Shown here one piece after another: positions 8,004 to 44,133 of a DNA stretch of 64,000 bases. The DNA is taken from NCBI GenBank assembly GCA_965200865.1, contig CBDAVG010000002.1, positions 1,583,942 through 1,647,941 on the forward strand. The letters run 5' to 3'. How positions within the stretch are numbered: the stretch's first letter is position 1; every line of letters starts with the position of its first letter. A program made the position numbers and the translations under genes. Under the pieces are notes generated by a model, which saw nothing but the letters and a program-made list of their open reading frames with translations, was not told where the DNA came from and did no database searches. This stretch comes from an uncultured candidatus Porisulfidus sp. Its GTDB lineage: Bacteria; Pseudomonadota; Gammaproteobacteria; Poriferisulfidales; Oxydemutatoraceae.

Positions 8004-10556
8004 ATGGAAAACACTCAAAGACTAATCACTGTCGCTTTCCTTATTTTGTTCCAGTTATTCGGAGGAGCGGTAAGCGCGGAAACATCACAATCCTCAAAGC
8101 CTAATATGATATTTATCATGGTGGATGATCTAGGCAAAAACATACTCTCTTTGCCTAGCATGAAAAATGTACTTAAGATGCCTAACCTTCAGCGGCTTGC
8201 TGCAGAAGGGGTAACATTCAAGAATGCTTATGCAACATACCTCTGTTTTTCTACACGCGTAAAGCTAGTAAGTGGAAGAGCTTCATTGAATACGGGAGCT
8301 TATGCAAATCAATTTCCCGATGGTAGTAGAAGTAAGCCATATTTTCACAGAGTTGTAAATCAAGGGCGTACTACAGGATTTTACAAATATTTTTATGGCG
8401 GTGATTCTAATATACACCCTTTTATAGACACTCAATATACATCTAGTTTTGCGCTACCGCTCAAGCACGCAGGTTATACAAACGCGATTGTCGGGAAATA
8501 GCATCTAAACGACTATGTTAAGCAACCTCGAATTTTCAGAACATTCGGTTTTGACCAATGGATGATGTCTAATAGCCACGTAGCCCCGGGTGCTTCAACT
8601 GATAAAGGGTATGTGGTTACCCCTACTAGATCTCATGCCGAAAAATTAGCCGACTTTGTTGTCAATTTCATCACCGAAAATAAAGACAAACCCTTCTTTG
8701 TCTACTATCCCATGCATTTAGTACATTCACCTTATGTAATACCATTCAATCCTATAGGACATCTAACACATACCGTGCTAGAGCGAAATATTGCCATGAT
8801 TGAATATGTAGATTTGATTATAGGCCGTTTAGTAGAAACATTAGAGACATTAAACATAAAGGATCAAACTATTATCTTCTTCTCAGGTGATAACGGCGAT
8901 GCTAATGAATATCGTGCTTTGTACGAACTTATTCAAGGTCCCGAAAAAAGCAAACAACAGCCTTTCTACGGTAAAGGTTCTCTATACGAAGGCGGTGTTA
9001 ATGTGCCTTTGATAGTCAGCGGTGGTCCGGTTGTAAAAAGAGGAAAAACCGAAGCTCTGGTAGATTTCACCGATATCTTACCCACACTTGCCGATCTTGC
9101 CGGTGTCTCCATTATTAGAAAAAATCAGGAAAATAATAGTGATTACAGAGGAATAGCCGATCAATATGTTTCCGTTGCTGGACTATACAAAGGAGACGGC
9201 TATTCCATAGCACCTTTTCTAACCGGACAAAGTGATGACACGCCACGGAAATGGGTGATGTTTTCGGGCTATGACAACATCGTAGTACGTAATAAAAAGT
9301 TTAAGCTATGGGCGAAAATAGTGGGTGACAAATATCAAGGATATAAACTCTATGATTTATACAACGACCCCTACGAACAAACCAATCTATACGACAGCAC
9401 AGACCAAACCATTCTTACAGCTAAGCAACAACTAAGCAAAATATTGGATGGTGTCCCCCGCCCCACACAAATAGACGAGTATTTTGATCCGGTAGATTGG
9501 AATTACGGCATGCTGTCTCATTGGTCTTTTAATCAACCAAAATTTCTAACAAATATAAATAAATTAGCCGATATCGAAAGTGGTTACGATGTGTACGACA
9601 CTAAAATCGTTTTTGACAAACAGGGAAAATTCGGACAAGCAATCAAAGCAAACCGTCTACAAGTTCCTTATTCTGAGGGGCTGTTTTATAACTTTACCAT
9701 TGGTGACAACGAGAGGCTTTTTAACCGACACAATAAAGGTATGTTCTATAAAGCAATCACAAAACTGATAGAAACGAATAAAACATTGATGGAATTTTCA
9801 GACTCTCTCTATACTAAGTGGTCTCCTCCTAGTGAATATCCTTCCAGAAAAGGAGACCGAGAGAAATTTCTCTCCAGCATGACCTTGTCAGCATGGGTGA
9901 AAGCTCCGAAACTCAAACAAGATGTTTATATTCTGAAGCAGCCGTATGCTAACAAAAAAGGTAGTTTAATAAGTTTTTCTATTACCGAAAATGCAACCGT
10001 TAATTTTGAATTGACCACAAATGATAAAACTCAAAAGTTAGAGAGCAAAACTTTAGACCAAACACTTTGGGGACAATGGATGCATATCGTAGCAACATGG
10101 GACGGACGCGACCAGTGCGGCGAAACCATACTTTATGTCAACGGTACGCGTGTTGCCCGAGCATGTTTGGGAAAACCTTTATCAGCAGACGACACCGACA
10201 ACCTGTTGCTGAGTGGCTTTGCTGAAGATCCGACGACCAATCATCCCCAAACATCAATAGACGATATTGCCATATGGCGGCAACCGTTGATGCCGATGCA
10301 AATAGAAGCATTGTATCGGCTTGGCAATCGTTTCTCTTATGATGCCTCGCAAGTTGACGCTTTGTTTAATACACCAGAGAATGATGGCATAACAAAAATC
10401 GGAGACCAAGTGTGGCATCGTGCGGCATTAGAAGAAACGACTGATACAGACCGTTTAGTGATTTTGGACCTTTCCGATGAAGTCAAAGTTCAATTCGGGG
10501 ATGTGATGGCAATCAAAACTATATCTCCCAAATCTGAACTCAGAGTTGAACAGTAA
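8004..10556 (+). pseudogene. Secreted sulfatase-LamG fusion, copy 1, interrupted by a single in-frame amber codon
   Basis: ORFs 8004-8501 and 8562-10556 are in the same frame with no other stop between them. TAG at 8499-8501 aligns with TGG (the Trp of GKWHLN) in copy 2. Signal peptide, DDLG, SGDNGD and the C-terminal LamG-like domain are all present. Confidence 0.8.
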
Positions 10557-10603
10557 TGCATTACAAAATGTAGGAAAAATTTTTTAGCTAATATGTGAGC
10601 TTA

Positions 10604-13132
10604 ATGAAAAATACCCGACAACTGATTTCCATCGCTCTCCTTATTTTGCTCCAGTTATTCGGAGGAACGGTAAGCGCACAAACATCACAACCCGCAAAGC
10701 CCAATATGATATTTATCATGGCCGATGATCTAGGTAAAAACATACTCTCTTTGCCTAGGATAAAAAATGTCATTAAGATGCCTAATCTTCAAAGGCTTGC
10801 CGCAGAAGGGGTGACATTCAAGAATGCTTATGCAACACCATTTTGTTTCTCCACACGAGTAAAGCTAATAAGTGGTCGGGCTTCATTGAATACAGGAGCT
10901 TATGCAAATCAATTTCCCGATGGTAGTAGAGGGGATAAGTATTTGAATAGAGTCGTAAACCAGCGACGTACTACAGGATTTTACAAATATTTTTATGGTG
11001 GTGATTCGAGTATACATCCTTTTATAGACACTCAATATATACCTAGCTTTGCGTTACCACTCAAGCAAGCAGGTTATAAAACCGCAGTTGTCGGAAAATG
11101 GCACTTAAACGACTATGTTAAACAACCTCGCATCTTCAGAACGTTCGGATTTGACCAATGGATGATATCTGCATCACATACAGCACTGGGAGGGCATACT
11201 GATAAAGGGTTTATAGTAACATCCGGTTTCCTTCCCCAAGAGTTGGCCGACTTTGTCGTCAATTTCATCACTAAGAATAAAGACAGACCTTTCTTTGTCT
11301 ACTATCCTATGCACTTGGTTCATTCTCCTTATTTAGCGACACCCTTAGCCTTGAATGCAGAAACCACAGAAGAAAAAATGATTTCAATGATTGAATATGT
11401 AGATTTAATTATAGGCCGTTTGATAGAAACATTGGAGACGTTAAACATAAAGGATCGAACCATTATCTTCTTCTCAGGCGACAACGGAGATGCCGATGCT
11501 TATCGTTCTTTGTACGAACTTATTCAAGGTTCCGAAAAAAGCAAACAGCAACCTTTTTACGGCAAAGGTTCTCTACACGAAGGTGGTGTTAATGTGCCTT
11601 TGATAATCAGCGGCGGTCCGGTTGTGAAAAGAGGAGAAACCGAAGCCTTGGTGGATTTCACCGATATCTTACCTACACTTGCCGATCTTGCCGGTGTCTC
11701 CGTTGTTAGAAAAAATCGCGAAGATAATAATGATTACAGAGGAATAGCCGATCAATATGTTTCCATTGCTGGACTATACAAAGGAGATGGCTATTCCATG
11801 GCACCTTTTCTAACTGGGCAAACCGATGACACACCACGAAAATGGATAATGTTTGCCTCGCGCGGTCAAATCGTAGTGCGCAATAAAGAGTTCAAGCTTT
11901 GGGCAAAAAGAAAGGGTAATAAATATCAAGGACATGAATTCTATAATTTATACAACGACCCTCACGAACAAACTAATCTATACAACAACACAGATCAGAC
12001 TATTCTTACAGCTAATCAACAACTAAACAACATATTGGCTAGTGTCCCCCAACCCACAAGAATAGACGAGTATTTTGATCCAGTAGATTGGAATTACGGC
12101 ATGCTATCTCATTGGTCTATGAACCGATCAAAATTGACCGATACTGAAGGCGGTCATGACATAGAACACAATACTGAGACTATTCTTAGAAAGCAAGGAA
12201 AATTGGGTAAGGCGATTAGTGCAACCCGCTTATATGTGCCCTACTCTAAGGATTTATTTTATAGTTTTGTTATAGATGGAAACGACCGTTTATACGAGAA
12301 ATTAAAGCAGTTATCTATTAATAGACAATTTCCCGGAAGCAGAACTTTCTATATAGGAGTGGGTAATATCATTAGAAGTTTCAATAAACCTTTAAGGGAA
12401 TACGCGAACGCTATCTTTAACCAGATTAGCCCTGATACATACCTTTCCAGAAAGGGAGACCGAGAAAAATTTCTCTCCAGCATGACCGTGTCGGTATGGG
12501 TAAAAACCCCACAACTCAAGGAAGATATTTATATTCTAAAGCAGCCGTACATTGACAAAAAAGGTAGTTTAATAAGTTTTTCTATCACCAAAAATGCAAC
12601 CGTTAATTTTGAACTAACCACCAACGATCAAACCCATAAGCTAGAAAGCAAAACTTTAGACCAAGCATTTTGGAGACAATGGATGCACATGGTAGCAATA
12701 TGGGACGGACGCGATCAGTGCGGCGAAACCATACTTTATATCAACGGGGCGCGTGTTGCCCGAGCATGTTTAGGAAAACCTTTATCAGCAGATGACACCG
12801 ACAACCTATTGCTGGGCGGCTTTGCTGAAGATCCGACAGCCAATCACGCCGAAACATCAATAGACGACATTGCCATATGGCGGCAACCGTTGATGCCGAT
12901 GCAAATAGAAGCGTTGTATCGGCTTGGTAATCGTTTCTCTTATGATGCCTCGCAAGTTGATGCTTTGTTTAATACACCAGAGAATGATGGCATAACAAAA
13001 ATCGGAGATCAAGTGTGGCATCGTACCGAATTAGAAGAAACAACTGATACGGGTGGTTTGATGATTCTAGAACTTCCCAATGAAGTCAAGGTTCAATTCG
13101 GGGATGTGATGGCAATCCGTCTAAAAATATAG
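10604..13132 (+). CDS. Secreted sulfatase (alkaline-phosphatase superfamily) fused to a C-terminal LamG/concanavalin-like lectin domain
   Basis: Signal peptide MKNTRQLISIALLILLQLFGGTVSA. Sulfatase motifs are NMIFIMADDLG, C-F-S-T-R...SGR, GKWHLN, FFSGDNGD and GKGSLHEGGVNVP. C-terminus shows the LamG pattern (SVWVK...ISFSI...WMHMVAIWDG...LYINGARVA...IDDIAIW). ATG 10604 was chosen by homology to the copy 1 start; the track start is GTG 10595. Confidence 0.85.
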   Translation: MKNTRQLISIALLILLQLFGGTVSAQTSQPAKPNMIFIMADDLGKNILSLPRIKNVIKMPNLQRLAAEGVTFKNAYATPFCFSTRVKLISGRASLNTGAYANQFPDGSRGDKYLNRVVNQRRTTGFYKYFYGGDSSIHPFIDTQYIPSFALPLKQAGYKTAVVGKWHLNDYVKQPRIFRTFGFDQWMISASHTALGGHTDKGFIVTSGFLPQELADFVVNFITKNKDRPFFVYYPMHLVHSPYLATPLALNAETTEEKMISMIEYVDLIIGRLIETLETLNIKDRTIIFFSGDNGDADAYRSLYELIQGSEKSKQQPFYGKGSLHEGGVNVPLIISGGPVVKRGETEALVDFTDILPTLADLAGVSVVRKNREDNNDYRGIADQYVSIAGLYKGDGYSMAPFLTGQTDDTPRKWIMFASRGQIVVRNKEFKLWAKRKGNKYQGHEFYNLYNDPHEQTNLYNNTDQTILTANQQLNNILASVPQPTRIDEYFDPVDWNYGMLSHWSMNRSKLTDTEGGHDIEHNTETILRKQGKLGKAISATRLYVPYSKDLFYSFVIDGNDRLYEKLKQLSINRQFPGSRTFYIGVGNIIRSFNKPLREYANAIFNQISPDTYLSRKGDREKFLSSMTVSVWVKTPQLKEDIYILKQPYIDKKGSLISFSITKNATVNFELTTNDQTHKLESKTLDQAFWRQWMHMVAIWDGRDQCGETILYINGARVARACLGKPLSADDTDNLLLGGFAEDPTANHAETSIDDIAIWRQPLMPMQIEALYRLGNRFSYDASQVDALFNTPENDGITKIGDQVWHRTELEETTDTGGLMILELPNEVKVQFGDVMAIRLKI

Positions 13133-13276
13133 AGGTAGTATTCCCCTCCTCTGGAGGGGTGGCAGGCGAGCCTGACGGGGTGGCCTATACGTTTTGTAAT
13201 GCATGCGTTTAACAATACTGTTGAGGTTCTGCACAACGTCACGCCGATTGACCTACTGGCTCAATCGGCGGTTCTA
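13133..13276. repeat. Mosaic repeat cluster C2 (composite unit U, reverse orientation)
   Basis: Contains the CCCCTCC-TCT-GGAGGGG hairpin (13142-13158), the GCATGCGTTTAACAATACTGTTGAGG module, and the GCCGATTGA/TCAATCGGC hairpin (13243-13269). Ends in GGTTCTA, whose CTA is the glmS stop codon. Confidence 0.85.
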
Positions 13277-15118
13277 TTCAACGGTAACTGATTTTGCGAG
13301 GTTGCGAGGTTGGTCTATATCAGTGCCTTTCAATAATGCCGTGTGATACGCAAGTAATTGCAAAGGTATCGTAAATAAAATCGGAGAAACCGCATTCTCA
13401 AAAGCATCCAACCGTATTACCTTCAAGGATGATTTCTCGTCTGATTGAAACCCGGTGCCGGAATCTGCAAAAACATGCAAACGCCCTCCTCTTGCCCGCA
13501 CTTCCTTTAGATTAGATTTAAGTTTAGATAGTAGTCGATCGTTAGGTGCCACTGCAACGACCGGCATATTGAAATCTACTAAGGCTAGCGGGCCGTGCTT
13601 AAGTTCGCCTGCAGCATAAGCCTCAGCGTGGATATAAGAGATTTCTTTCATTTTGAGTGCCCCTTCCATGGCGATGGGATAATGCAAACCTCGCCCTAAA
13701 AATAAGGCATGTTGTTTGTCGGAGTACTCTCTTGCCAACAGACGTATTTCCTCCTCGCAACCTAAAATTTGCTCTAGACGTGCAGGCAGGTTGCGTAGTT
13801 GATCTACAAGATCGGATACTGACGACTTCGTCAAGCATCGCCGTTTACCCAAAAGTATAGTCAATAATAACAAAACGGTAAGCTGTGTTGTGAAGGCTTT
13901 AGTTGAAGCCACACCTATCTCGGGACCTGCATGGGTCATCAATACTACATCGACTTCTCGAGTTAGAGAACTCTCAGGCACATTACAAATAGCCAATGTC
14001 TTGAAATAATCGTGTTGCTTGGCAATCCGTAACGCTGCCAAAGTGTCCGCAGTCTCACCCGATTGAGAAATTACAACCAACAAAGTATTCGGTGGTACAA
14101 AGTGACGGCGGTACCGAAATTCGCTGGCAATCTCGGCACTACAAGACATATTTGCAAACTCTTCTAACCAGTAGCGAGCAACGAGTGCGGCGTGATAACT
14201 GGTTCCGCAAGCAACAATATGCACCTGTTCAATATGATCAAGAAATTCGGTTGCATCTGGAGAAATAATATCATCCGGAATATCATTGGCAAGTAGACGC
14301 CCTTCAAGTGTATCTGCGATAACACGAGGTTGATCGTATATTTCCTTCTGCATATAGTGTTGATATTCGCCCAAGTCGCTGTTGTATGATGCCAACGATA
14401 TCTCATGGCGTTCGCGCACTACAGGTTTCAAATGACTATCAAAAATATTCACTTGATCTTGGCTAATCTCCGCTATGTCACCGTTTTCCAAATGGATAAA
14501 AGTTTGAGTAATAGGCGACAACGCCTGTATATCGGATGCCGCATAGTTGGCGTGCCCTCCGATACCGATTACCAAAGGGCTTCCTTCTCGTACCAACACG
14601 ACGCTTTCAGGATTTTGTGCGTCAAGCACAGCCAAGCTATATGCCCCTTCAAGGTCGTTTATAGTTTTTGATATCGCACCCAATAAATCCTCATTTTGTC
14701 GTAAATAAAATATGATTTGATGTGCTATGACTTCGGTATCAGTTTCCGAGCTGAACTCAAACCCTTCGGATTTTTGCATCTCCTTCAAAACTTCATAATT
14801 TTCTATGATGCCGTTGTGGACGATAGCAATACGGTTATCGGAAATATGCGGGTGTGCATTTGCTTTATCAGGCGCACCGTGGGTAGCCCAACGTGTATGC
14901 GCTATGCCAATATTACTACGGCATGGTGTTGATCTTAGTAACTCTTGTAGTTTTGCTACCTTACCCAAACACCGTACCCGTTGTATAGGAACATCACCGT
15001 CATCGTTCAGAACCGCAATACCGGCGGAGTCATAACCGCGGTATTCTAGTCTGAATAACCCCTCCATTAAAACACTACTCACATCGGATGTTGCGATAGC
15101 AGCTACTATTCCACACAT
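13274..15118 (-). CDS. glmS: Glutamine--fructose-6-phosphate aminotransferase
   Basis: Start placed at the Met preceding the catalytic Cys (MCGIVAAI). Canonical C-terminus NLAKSVTVE. The track's upstream extension to 15172 overlaps glmU. Confidence 0.96.
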   Translation of the reverse strand: MCGIVAAIATSDVSSVLMEGLFRLEYRGYDSAGIAVLNDDGDVPIQRVRCLGKVAKLQELLRSTPCRSNIGIAHTRWATHGAPDKANAHPHISDNRIAIVHNGIIENYEVLKEMQKSEGFEFSSETDTEVIAHQIIFYLRQNEDLLGAISKTINDLEGAYSLAVLDAQNPESVVLVREGSPLVIGIGGHANYAASDIQALSPITQTFIHLENGDIAEISQDQVNIFDSHLKPVVRERHEISLASYNSDLGEYQHYMQKEIYDQPRVIADTLEGRLLANDIPDDIISPDATEFLDHIEQVHIVACGTSYHAALVARYWLEEFANMSCSAEIASEFRYRRHFVPPNTLLVVISQSGETADTLAALRIAKQHDYFKTLAICNVPESSLTREVDVVLMTHAGPEIGVASTKAFTTQLTVLLLLTILLGKRRCLTKSSVSDLVDQLRNLPARLEQILGCEEEIRLLAREYSDKQHALFLGRGLHYPIAMEGALKMKEISYIHAEAYAAGELKHGPLALVDFNMPVVAVAPNDRLLSKLKSNLKEVRARGGRLHVFADSGTGFQSDEKSSLKVIRLDAFENAVSPILFTIPLQLLAYHTALLKGTDIDQPRNLAKSVTVE

Positions 15119-15123
15119 CGTTT

Positions 15124-16503
15124 TTATTTCTTTGTCGGGCGTCGCCAGCCTTTCACCGTAGTCTGTTTGCAACGAGATAATGTCAATTCATCAGCAGGCA
15201 CATCGTGGGTGATCGTTGAACCAGCACCAATAGTAGCATTGGAGCCTATCTCAATGGGTGCAATGATTTGCGTATCCGAGCCTATAAATACATTGTCTCC
15301 GATAACCGTGCGATGTTTATCAGCACCATCGTAGTTACAAGTAATTGTGCCTGCACCTATATTAACCTTTGAACCTATTTCGCTATCTCCCATATAGCTC
15401 AGATGGTTGATTTTAGCGTCATTGCCAGTTGTGGTCTGTTTTATTTCTACGAAATTACCAATACGATTATTATCTCCTATCCGCGTATCAGGGCGCACCC
15501 GTGCATAAGGTCCCACGATGCAACACTTGCCAATGTGTGCGCCTTCTATATGGGAGAAAGACCTAACGACCGTACCTGCTGCAATAGAAACATTTTTCAA
15601 CACACTATAAGCTTCTATCTTGACATCGTCGCCGAGCTTTATTTCACCCTCAAGTATTACACCTACATCAAAGATAACACCTTTGCCGAGTTGTATTGCT
15701 GCGCTACGCACATCTAAACGGTCGGCATCTTGAACTATAGCACCGTTTTCTATCAGTTCCGAAACCCGAATACGCTGTAACAACCGCTCCGCTGCCGTAT
15801 ATTGCTGAGGTGTATTGATGCCGAGGGCTTGCCATGTTTCTTTCAACCCACCAACCCCTATGCTTAAATCTTCATCAACCGCGATCTGTATACAATCGGT
15901 CAAATAATATTCTTGTTGCTTATTGTCGTTTGCCACTTTTTGTATTAATTTGCTTAGGGTCTTCGCTTGTGCAGTCATGATACCTATGTTGACTTCTTCC
16001 ACCTTGCATTCATCAGGCGAAGCATCCGCTTCCTCCACAATACGCATAACCTTCCCGTCATCGGTACGCAGCACTCGCCCGTAACCTTTAGGATCTTTTA
16101 ATTGCGTGGTCATAAAAGTTAGTTCGTGCTGCCCTTGTAAAGCTAGTAACATTTGATAGCTTGATGCATCAACAAACGGCATATCGGTATACGAAACTAA
16201 AACTTGGTCCTCGGGTGCTATAGCGGGTAATGCTTGAGAAACCGCGTGCGCCGTGCCGAGCTGTTCGTCTTGTTGGTGCCAATGAATATTATCCAATCCC
16301 ACAAAGCGACTGGAAACCGCCTCCCGAACCTGTTCTCTGCCAAAACCTACAACGATATGCAACTGTGCCGATGGAAGTTTCCGCAGTTCCCTAAGGACAT
16401 GGGAAATAAGTGGCTCACCACCTAACTCGCAAAGTGCTTTAGGTTTTGTGCCACCCATTCGCCGAGCTTGACCGGCTGCAAGAAGAATTATAGAAAGGCT
16501 CAT
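15124..16503 (-). CDS. glmU: Bifunctional UDP-N-acetylglucosamine pyrophosphorylase / GlcN-1-P acetyltransferase
   Basis: Starts MSLSIILLAAG... at ATG 16503 (the track start 16530 is TTG). C-terminal left-handed beta-helix hexapeptide repeats. Adjacent to glmS. Confidence 0.93.
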   Translation of the reverse strand: MSLSIILLAAGQARRMGGTKPKALCELGGEPLISHVLRELRKLPSAQLHIVVGFGREQVREAVSSRFVGLDNIHWHQQDEQLGTAHAVSQALPAIAPEDQVLVSYTDMPFVDASSYQMLLALQGQHELTFMTTQLKDPKGYGRVLRTDDGKVMRIVEEADASPDECKVEEVNIGIMTAQAKTLSKLIQKVANDNKQQEYYLTDCIQIAVDEDLSIGVGGLKETWQALGINTPQQYTAAERLLQRIRVSELIENGAIVQDADRLDVRSAAIQLGKGVIFDVGVILEGEIKLGDDVKIEAYSVLKNVSIAAGTVVRSFSHIEGAHIGKCCIVGPYARVRPDTRIGDNNRIGNFVEIKQTTTGNDAKINHLSYMGDSEIGSKVNIGAGTITCNYDGADKHRTVIGDNVFIGSDTQIIAPIEIGSNATIGAGSTITHDVPADELTLSRCKQTTVKGWRRPTKK

Positions 16504-39735: not shown

Positions 39736-40517
39736 TAGCTGCGCCGCTTGTTAGCATAAAAGATCAACCCGACACCAACCGCAACCATTGCCAACGACAA
39801 TAGTTGCCCCATCGTCATCCATCCTAAAGCAACAAAGCCTATATGTGCGTCGGGCTCTCGGGTGAACTCAACCAAGAATCGTAGCACACCATAACCAATG
39901 GCAAAGTACGCAGCGACTCGACCTAAGGGGCGCGGTTTTTTAGAATAGAACCACAACACAATGAATAACACCACACCCTCCAGCAAAAATTCATACAGCT
40001 GAGAGGGATGACGCGGCTCAGAGCCAGCAATAGGAAACACAACTGCCCACGGTAAATCGCTAATCCGCCCCCATAATTCTCCGTTAATGAAGTTACCGAT
40101 TCTTCCCAAGCCCAAACCTATAGGCACAAGAGGTGCGATAAAGTCCATTATCCGCAAAAAGTTAAGCCCACGGGTGCGTGCAAATATCCAAACAGTTATT
40201 AGCACACCGAGCATACCGCCGTGAAAACTCATGCCACCTTGCCATATCATAAATAAACTCAGCGGCTCAGTCAGTAGCGTAGAGAAGTTATAAAATAGCA
40301 TATAGCCCACGCGCCCTCCGACAATTACGCCGATAATTCCGTAAAACAATAAATCGTCCAGCTTAGAGATCGGAACACCGTATAAAGGGTTGCGGGCGCG
40401 CATACGACCCAATATATAAAATATGATAAAAGCGAGTAGATACATCAAACCGTACCAATGTACCTGGACCGGACCTAAGGAAAATGCAACAGGGTTTATA
40501 TTCGGCAGATGAATCAT
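39735..40517 (-). CDS. lgt: Phosphatidylglycerol--prolipoprotein diacylglyceryl transferase
   Basis: 260 aa. HWYGLMY and [14 protein letters not shown] signatures. Conserved lgt-thyA neighbourhood. Confidence 0.95.
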
Positions 40518-43540: not shown

Positions 43541-43994
43541 TTGGAAAGTAGAACCGCCGATTGACCCAGTTGGTCAATCGGCGTAACGTCGTGCAGACCC
43601 CTAACATGGGTATGTGTGGGTCGGACAAGCTAAGGCTTGTCCTAAATGGTGGGTACGCCATAAAACCACCGATTATCGCCGAGTGTACCCGCCACTTGAG
43701 CCAGTAGGTCAAGTGGCGTAACTTTGTACGAAATCTAAATATTGTGTTCGTTAAAAACAGTACGTATATCAAAATCAATCAGTGTGACATTGTGCAGAAC
43801 CTCAACAGTATTGTTAAACGCATACATTACAAAATGCATAGGCTACCCCGTCAGATAGAACCGCCGATTGAACCGATAGGTCAATCGGCGTGACGTTGTG
43901 CAGAGCCTCAACATGAATGCTAGACGCATAAATTGCAAAGTGCATAGGCCTGCCACCCCTCCAAAGGAGGGGAATACTATTTTTCAACAGTCCC
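43541..43994. repeat. Mosaic repeat cluster C4 (pile-up of units directly after tRNA-Pro)
   Basis: Three TAGAACCGCC / GCCACTTGA-type hairpin modules (43549-43600, ~43679-43730, 43856-43907), two GTTAAACGCATxCATTACAAAATGCATAGG modules, the CCCCTCC-AAA-GGAGGGG hairpin (43956-43972), and the terminal TTTTTCAACAGTCCC. Confidence 0.85.
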
Positions 43995-44133
43995 ACACGC
44001 AGCCAAACCACTGGAACAAGTGGTGGTTCTATCATGCAAAAATACACTTAGTCGGTTATTAATAACCATTCGTCGGTATCCCGAAACTCAGCCGCCTAAA
44101 TACGGCAAAGTAGTATATTTTATGGAGATATCA

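Follow-up and report, generated by a model that had tools for sequence, protein, structure and literature searches.

Two conserved genes in the 64,000-nucleotide stretch of DNA analysed here (the window), glmS and hemL, end on a TAG that is at the same time the 5' tag of a small hairpin module. The module, a REP-type repeat, consists of a short imperfect palindrome preceded at its 5' end by an unpaired tag; the explanation that we consider likely overall is that the tag is carried by the element and becomes the stop codon whenever a copy comes to abut the end of a gene.

The window is a segment of a gammaproteobacterial chromosome (GC ~43%), and the public runs in which its sequence occurs bear either the label sponge metagenome or a coded host name. 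For comparison we used three sponge-associated gammaproteobacteria, OZ241323.1 (a MAG named 'uncultured Candidatus Porisulfidus sp.'), OZ244779.1 ('Ca. Oxydemutatoraceae') and OZ244052.1, together with the sponge metagenome runs X1, X4 and X5. The GlmS and HemL proteins of the window are 96-97% identical to those of OZ241323.1 and 92-93% identical to those of OZ244779.1 and OZ244052.1. At the level of glmS DNA, the window and OZ241323.1 form one clade (A, 94%) and OZ244779.1 and OZ244052.1 another (B, 92.5%); between A and B identity is 87-88%, and for the next relatives it is only ~63%. The features discussed below are, in window coordinates:

13133..13273, minus strand: composite repeat cluster reaching from glmS to a sulfatase-like gene; a relative's contig skips 13132-13275
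13242..13270, minus strand: glmS hairpin, stem CCGCCGATTGA(G)CC / GGTCAATCGGCG, loop AGTA; dG -21 kcal/mol, z -3.2; covariation
13274..13276, minus strand: TAG, stop codon of glmS and 5' tag of the REP-like module; TGA in relatives without the module
13274..15172, minus strand: glmS ORF (NCBIfam TIGR01135, profile positions 1-607 of 607)
39432..39461, minus strand: relic duplicate of the last 9 lgt codons with the native TGA (ATCTTTTATGCTAACAAGCAGCAAAGCTGA); partner in use at 39735-39764
39484..39736, no strand assigned: MITE-like composite bounded by GGGATTGTTGAAAAA and TTTTTCAACAGCCC, containing REP copy 39499(+)
39735..39737, minus strand: lgt stop TAG, which shares bases with the outer end of a MITE-like element's inverted repeat, (T)GGGCTGTTGAAAAAG
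43549..43587, plus strand: REP copy 8 nt past tRNA-Pro
43856..43894, plus strand: REP copy nested in a CCCCGTCAG module
44000..44031, minus strand: REP copy (TAGAACCACC, ACTTG stem), tag 3 nt from the ATG of radC on the opposite strand
53895..53922, minus strand: hemL hairpin, perfect 12-bp stem, GTTTGT subfamily, loop 4 nt; dG -21.1 kcal/mol, z -5.7
53927..53929, minus strand: TAG, stop codon of hemL and REP tag
53927..55216, minus strand: hemL (NCBIfam), ending ...QAFHR*
58376..58414, minus strand: REP copy (TAGAACTGCC) directly inside the left inverted repeat of a MITE

The tag end of the module, TAGAACCGCC, is present exactly at 13276(-), 39499(+), 43549(+), 43856(+) and 53929(-) and with one mismatch at 58414(-), where it reads TAGAACTGCC, and at 44031(-), where it reads TAGAACCACC. 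These seven matches compare with 2.6 expected, and none of 100 shuffles got to seven. The first-pass annotation had given the same terminus for six copies, all of which are present; five are exact as it had them, the one at 58414(-) carries its mismatch, and the copy at 44031(-) was left off the list. The module runs from (A/G)TAG through AAC to a stem of 10-13 bp with a loop of 3-5 nt and is usually followed by GTRAC-NTTGTKCAGAACCT (99 of 122 copies). When 65 distinct copies from the window and its relatives are aligned, T1 A2 G3 A4 never vary and A5 C6 reach at least 90% conservation; the TAG is unpaired, and behind it lies a stem of 12 pairs with one bulge and a 4-nt loop in which 97.1% of the cells are paired. 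Compensatory change has altered 6 of the 12 stem pairs on both sides (61 cells), with a covariation score that none of 500 shuffles equalled and that slid controls came nowhere near. The stems fall into the subfamilies GATTGA/TCAATC (98 copies), GTTTGT/ACAAAC (31 copies) and ACTTG/CAAGT, and as RNA the hairpins fold with dG of -19 to -24 kcal/mol (z -3 to -5.7). In 23 unique contexts the base preceding TAG is A in 16, G in 5 and T and C in one each. The module closes every reading frame within 38 nt, by the TAG at 0 and by TGA at +13 and +35.

More than 140 copies lie in the ~0.8 Mb sampled from the window and the three related genomes. Since a 14-base pattern gave mostly chance matches, a longer gapped pattern was used instead to scan one genome per species across ~185,000 species; at least 89 blocks matched, and among the matches listed (89 blocks) all but one come from the three related genomes. 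At the gathering score, Rfam has no family for the hairpin and matched only three tRNAs in the window. Most of 171 copies are single, and within 300 nt there are 20 same-strand neighbours versus 4 inverted pairs.

At glmS the stop is CTA on the given strand at 13274-13276, as annotated, and the protein ends ...NLAKSVTVE* with TIGR01135 matched to its last position. As the profile match begins at ORF residue 19-20, translation probably starts close to 15118. The hairpin stem begins 3 nt past the stop codon, and the cluster to which it belongs (13133..13273), composed of the REP hairpin, GTGAC..GTGCAGAACCTCAACA, ..ATGCATTACAAAACGTATAGGC and CACCCCGTCAGGCTCGCCTGCCACCCCTCCAGAGGAGGGGAATA, occupies the entire space separating the convergent glmS and sulfatase-like genes. 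In both the window and OZ241323.1 glmS ends GAA TAG and the element follows directly, with no spacer. OZ244779.1 and OZ244052.1, which have no copy of the element at glmS, read GTAGAG TGA, a 14-nt spacer and the stop of the convergent sulfatase-like gene, and a contig of run X4 (~91% identical) skips 13132-13275 to give GTTGAA TGA, 13 nt (GTAAGTATCAACC) and the neighbour's stop (TTA on the given strand, that is, TAA). Because three element-free lineages use TGA, the simplest reading of these alleles is that the element's TAG replaced the glmS TGA together with the spacer. Given that 7 of 8 distant outgroups without the element (63-68% amino acid identity) have TAG, the ancestor of clade A could instead have had TAG at glmS, the tag falling on an existing stop; with three TGA lineages this is less parsimonious.

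The neighbouring region has features of its own. Positions 8004-13132 comprise two tandem units of ~2.6 kb, 84-89% identical, the second of which encodes the 845-aa sulfatase-like protein converging on glmS. The 14-nt glmS/sulfatase spacer of OZ244779.1 (L001 4897-4916) reads TAGAACCGACAATTCGC on the opposite strand; its TAG is the sulfatase-like gene's stop and 13 of the first 17 bases fit the module head, a resemblance that may be due to chance or to the remains of an earlier, oppositely oriented copy.

The stop of hemL is CTA at 53927-53929, and past it stands a stem of 12 bp without a mismatch that closes a loop of 4 nt, again in agreement with the annotation. OZ241323.1 has the same copy as the window and OZ244779.1 has TAG AACCACCG followed by a decayed hairpin, so the hemL copy is older than the split of the two clades. 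In OZ244052.1 the last two codons are replaced by a different module, and the resulting ORF tail takes the protein to 440 versus 429 aa. HemL of the window is one residue shorter than the ..FKRL end usual in Methylococcales outgroups. No clean empty hemL site was found among the relatives and the metagenome contigs, which break at repeats.

A third gene, lgt (39735..40517(-), NCBIfam-confirmed, ending ...KRRS*), is related to the hairpin cases in outcome, not in element. Its TAG at 39735-39737 is indeed contiguous with the other repeat terminus, the G of TAG being the first G of GGGCTGTTGAAAAAG; the annotation took the hairpin terminus together with the TAGGGCTGTTG terminus as a single phenomenon, but these are two different elements that arrive at a similar result by different routes. 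The MITE-like composite next to lgt contains REP copy 39499(+), which has a ~93-nt insertion (39518-39610) in its loop; other hairpin copies in the metagenome runs skip ~39518-39610 (91-94 nt). On the minus strand the working end of lgt reads ATCTTTTATGCTAACAAG CGG CGC AGC TAG and passes directly into GGCTGTTG, and the relic end 303 nt downstream reads ATCTTTTATGCTAACAAG CAG CAA AGC TGA. Contigs in X1, X4 and X5 skip these 303 nt, with a joint that is ambiguous over a 19-nt direct repeat, and since the empty alleles retain TCA (= TGA) at 39432-39434 the native lgt stop was TGA.

The gene end is present twice, as an imperfect direct duplication of ~30 nt (39432-39461 and 39735-39764) that brackets the 303-nt lgt insertion and has the look of an att-like or long-target-duplication signature. 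On the strength of this insertion, its duplication and the relic TGA, an att-like or long-duplication mechanism might carry clusters into gene ends and supply replacement last codons together with a stop of their own. We regard this as quite improbable; a search for a second gene-end duplication flanking a repeat cluster left lgt as the sole case. If true, it would mean non-autonomous mini-elements specialised for harmless insertion into the 3' ends of essential genes. The inverted-repeat end has the consensus YRT-GGGRCTGTTGAAAAAG and bounds MITE-like units of 125-175 and 200-275 bp. A stop codon stands at its TGG position in four cases (TAG in lgt and L281, TAA in L287, TGA in L303), and four putative ORFs run through TGG GGC TGT to the TGA within GTTGAA. 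The TGGGRCTGTTG elements have inverted repeats and show no TA duplication.

The hairpin junction recurs at other genes. In blocks chosen solely for holding the repeat, the tag is the stop codon of fur (L285), trkH (L289 and L301, in two genomes), gatB (L344) and a 94-aa gene (L205), and copies with decayed hairpins stand at the stops of sctD (L335), a sctP-like gene (L297) and probably an L,D-transpeptidase gene (L247). The tag-ended proteins reach their native C-termini, TrkH covering profile positions 2-483 of 483 and GatB extending to 474 of 475 (NCBIfam); Fur extends to 141 of 148 and SctD to 410 of 413 (NCBIfam). In two verified genes, a fur ortholog (L340) and a gene common to L206 and L288, the reading frame continues into the module as far as its +13 TGA; an automatic tally at -13 holds 4-5 ORFs in all, two of them verified. 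In L334 the gene has a TGA immediately 5' of the element's own TAG. As a side observation, the related genomes encode type III secretion components, with SctD at L335 1639-3054 and an SctP/YscP-like needle-length protein at L297 2797-3591.

Could so many repeats in a compact genome simply abut some stops by chance? Short spacers are everywhere in these sequences, and at the end of the MITE-like inverted repeat gene spacers of 1-14 nt are common, with no sharp spike, which speaks for coincidence. The hairpin module behaves differently, and the junctions exceed chance. By hand count, 10 of ~18 copies with the tag side at unique DNA are fused to a gene 3' end; among such copies a spacer of 0 is far commoner than one of 1-15 nt, of which there are only three (3, 7 and 12 nt) among 146 copies. 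For 139 copies placed uniformly in intergenic DNA, ~0.3-0.6 exact stop coincidences would be expected; the unbiased blocks yield at least 5 verified ones and the window adds 2. The same type of junction is also repeated at unrelated genes in three other genomes, so that we consider coincidence very unlikely. Null models run on crude ORF calls either over-counted ORFs (expected 0.98) or dropped real genes (k=2); because automatic gene calls are noisy, the enrichment rests on the hand-verified junctions and the expectation is given as a range. That spacers pile up sharply at 0, few being intermediate, would also be expected if the element chose TA or TAG as its target, duplicating it in the manner of TA-duplicating MITEs or, like IS200/IS605 elements, inserting 3' of a fixed one; TAG stops would then serve as harmless targets and the TAG would be host sequence. 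This model gains from the frequency of TAG as a stop in the window (15 of 52 genes), from the TAG of most distant glmS outgroups, from a pair of paralogs (L205/L350) that share gene-TAGAAC with and without the hairpin, and from an empty allele (L330) with a native TAG near the tag position of L334. Several lines of evidence speak against it, and we judge it unlikely. The sequence CTGTTGAAAAA continues with TAGAACC in 27 of 182 copies, and its other common continuations begin with G (GTRT.., GTAC..), not TAG; CCCGTCAG continues with GCTTCGC and similar when uninterrupted and with ATAGAAC (30) or GCTGAATAG (13) when interrupted by the hairpin. No TA or TAG direct repeat flanks the hairpin units, which are also without a matching inverted end. 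Since uninterrupted host modules lack the TAG and no such repeat brackets the unit, the tag is the element's own and moves with it, and it is not a duplicated target. In L334, TGA is followed at once by the element's TAG, and native stops are TGA at glmS, in three element-free lineages, and at lgt. The suggestion in the first-pass annotation that the elements target TA or TAG at gene ends, as TA-duplicating MITEs would, thus fails both on the lack of flanking repeats, with nested empty sites that have no TAG, and on the comparison of orthologous gene ends, whereas its suggestion that insertions replace native stops finds support at glmS and lgt. Among specific element types, we rejected an IS200/IS605-type element with a fixed 5' host target (nested sites without TAG; TGA at empty glmS sites) and a TA-duplicating MITE of the IS630/Tc1 type (no flanking duplicated TA at the hairpin unit), and dropped integron attC-like cores as a poor fit.

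A different kind of explanation places the cause in the RNA, the hairpin being retained next to stop codons as a 3' stabiliser, terminator or ribosome brake, with selection giving the zero spacer. We think this rather unlikely as the source of the junctions, and it can coexist with the preferred reading of an element-borne tag. The hairpins are as stable as their folding energies indicate, compensatory changes maintain the stems, and the hemL copy has been retained across both clades (~87% nucleotide identity). In all seven clusters of the window the flanking genes are convergent or co-directional, never divergent, and in E. coli, according to Liang, Rudd & Deutscher (2015, cited in PMC12306157), REPs within 15 nt of a stop stall ribosomes and lower translation. 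On the other side, a DNA-level recognition site predicts maintenance of the palindrome equally well, and ~110 of the 146 copies are nested in other repeats and not adjacent to genes. There is also no T-tract 3' of the hairpins on the sense strand, where they continue into GTGACGTTGTGC or ATAACCTTTTGC, so they are not classical intrinsic (Rho-independent) terminators; a terminator scan likewise found no terminator-like site at the glmS or hemL hairpin on the sense strand, and the one weak minus-strand match in the vicinity of glmS, at 13147-13131, falls at the cluster's far end. By analogy with the stop-proximal REPs of E. coli, a REP-like role of the hairpins in RNA is nonetheless plausible, in which a hairpin 3 nt past the stop could shield the 3' end or hold up ribosomes as they terminate. 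Recoding, in which UAG and hairpin direct read-through or the insertion of a non-standard amino acid, has only this geometry to commend it: a stable hairpin 3 nt beyond a UAG. We give this hardly any credence: glmS, trkH and gatB end at canonical C-termini, read-through would add 6 residues before another TAG in the loop, and the module lies mostly outside genes.

The preferred reading, that of an element-borne tag, can be put as a sequence of steps. A copy would reach the last sense codon of a gene either by inserting over the stop or by later loss of a short spacer; the tag, lying against that codon, would then be read as the stop and the native stop would be lost. In genes such as glmS only junctions that leave the C-terminus intact would survive, which would explain why the observed junctions are exact, and junctions that are out of frame would survive with short tails because the module closes all three frames within 38 nt. 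At the MITE-like inverted repeat, the outer TGG would become TAG, TAA or TGA, or alternatively the gene would continue through TGG GGC TGT to the TGA in GTTGAA. What the sequences show directly is the anatomy of the element, its ownership of the tag, the native TGA at glmS and lgt, and the repetition of the junction at other genes; the order of events, direct replacement as against insertion followed by spacer loss, the mobilising enzyme and any effect at the RNA level are what we infer here.

The module is one component of an intergenic mosaic in which MITE-like elements, with the inverted repeat YRTGGGRCTGTTGAAAAAG, are combined with further palindromic modules of small size. On its 5' side lies another repeat in most copies (~110 of 146): among the 146, the 5' context is the inverted repeat GGGACTGTTGAAAAA in 32, CCCCGTCAGA in 32, GTCAGGCTGAA in 37, GGCAGGCGCAA and CTGCACAAG in 13 together, and other, 'unique' sequence in 32. 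The hairpin unit also occupies the loop of another module's CAGGC-NNN-GCCTG palindrome, in either orientation, and a complete MITE of ~150 bp at 58283-58430 hosts the copy at 58376..58414(-).

Tag-as-stop behaviour is already described for bacterial REPs, and the sponge-symbiont module is a new example of it, as the tags of GTAG-tagged REPs are known often to be the TAG stop of the flanking ORF (Di Nocera, De Gregorio & Rocco 2013; PMC3733652). Those repeats have stems of 6-13 bp with subfamilies that differ by complementary changes, lie mostly <20 bp from ORF 3' ends between convergent or co-directional gene pairs, insert into other palindromes, and permit degeneracy of the tag at positions 2-3, not at position 1 (PMC3733652). 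The two families are alike in being short imperfect palindromes with an unpaired terminal tag that contains TAG, in their stem subfamilies with complementary changes and high copy number, in their position near 3' ends between convergent or co-directional genes, in their nesting in palindromes and mosaics, and in the frequent service of the tag as the flanking ORF's TAG stop. They differ in that the first tag base of the sponge-symbiont module is mostly A and not G, the unpaired AAC between tag and stem is 3 nt long compared with 2 nt in GTAG-1/2, copies are mostly single or head-to-tail and not inverted doublets, a conserved ~25-nt extension lies 3' of the hairpin, and the host is an uncultured sponge symbiont clade. 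The module also differs from REPINs, as inverted pairs do not predominate (4 versus 20 same-strand neighbours). In 818 kb (the genomes being 2.2-2.9 Mb each), we found no tblastn match to a RayT probe and no ORF with HUH...Y..NP; a REP mobilisation model is unconfirmed because no RAYT-type transposase was found in these 818 kb, and RAYT is absent from some REP-bearing genomes (PMC3733652). As to the stop-proximal REPs of E. coli (Liang, Rudd & Deutscher 2015, cited in PMC12306157), both they and the present hairpins place a stable stem within the footprint of the terminating ribosome, and the spacing here is more extreme, with the stem 3 nt past the stop.

Among repeat mosaics, E. coli BIMEs and Neisseria NIMEs (dRS3/RS) are likewise intergenic assemblies of small palindromic modules in variable order, with IS110-family elements inserting into the palindromes; the module sequences are unrelated and there is no evidence of common enzymes. 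The ATTCCCCTCC-N3-GGAGGGGAAT module recalls Neisseria dRS3 (ATTCCC-N8-GGGAAT). The TGGGRCTGTTGAAAAAG elements resemble Correia, ERIC and RU MITEs (Delihas 2007, PMC2759123) in being bounded by inverted repeats, with lengths of 125-275 bp, and in overlapping or extending ORF ends, to which they supply stops or short tails. They differ in having no TA duplication, and the lgt insertion comes with a ~30-nt duplication of the gene end and not a short fixed one.

The finding opens no new class of mechanism. It adds a new REP-like family, together with the modules that share its mosaic, from an uncultured sponge-symbiont clade and provides clean before-and-after alleles in which a repeat insertion swaps the stop (TGA to TAG) and leaves the protein unchanged. 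For annotation, it means that a conserved gene can owe its stop codon or a short C-terminal tail to a repeat. The repeats could be of use as strain markers, and a hairpin 3 nt past a stop codon offers a natural test of effects on termination.

Further observations concern other parts of the mosaic. At 44000-44037 the likely ribosome-binding GGTGG of radC (plus strand) lies within a hairpin arm, an arrangement conserved in OZ241323.1 (L352). An IS110-family IS (Pfam DEDD_Tnp_IS110 and Transposase_20) occupies 58548-59871, with its ORF at 58811-59812(+), and sits in the loop of a palindromic module between TACTTTAGGGAGG and CATGTTAGCCCTCCCC; an uninterrupted copy of that module is at 53765-53805. 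The IS is 96.7% identical to the OZ241323.1 copy (L205), above the genome average, and the ~260-nt non-coding stretch 5' of its ORF could encode a bridge/seek RNA. Three paralogous genes of ~350-364 aa lie at 32619-36378 with repeated segments 74-89% identical, and the stop of one, 33981..35075(-), is followed directly by TAGAACCGG, with no hairpin. The CCCCTCC-N3-GGAGGGG module (13141-13171 and 39682-39708) has a k-mer depth ~1,000-3,000x that of flanking genes in sponge-run contigs, which points to a very high copy number in sponge communities. Finally, a tandem array of four hairpin-containing units with a 215-nt period is found at L308 7273-7951.
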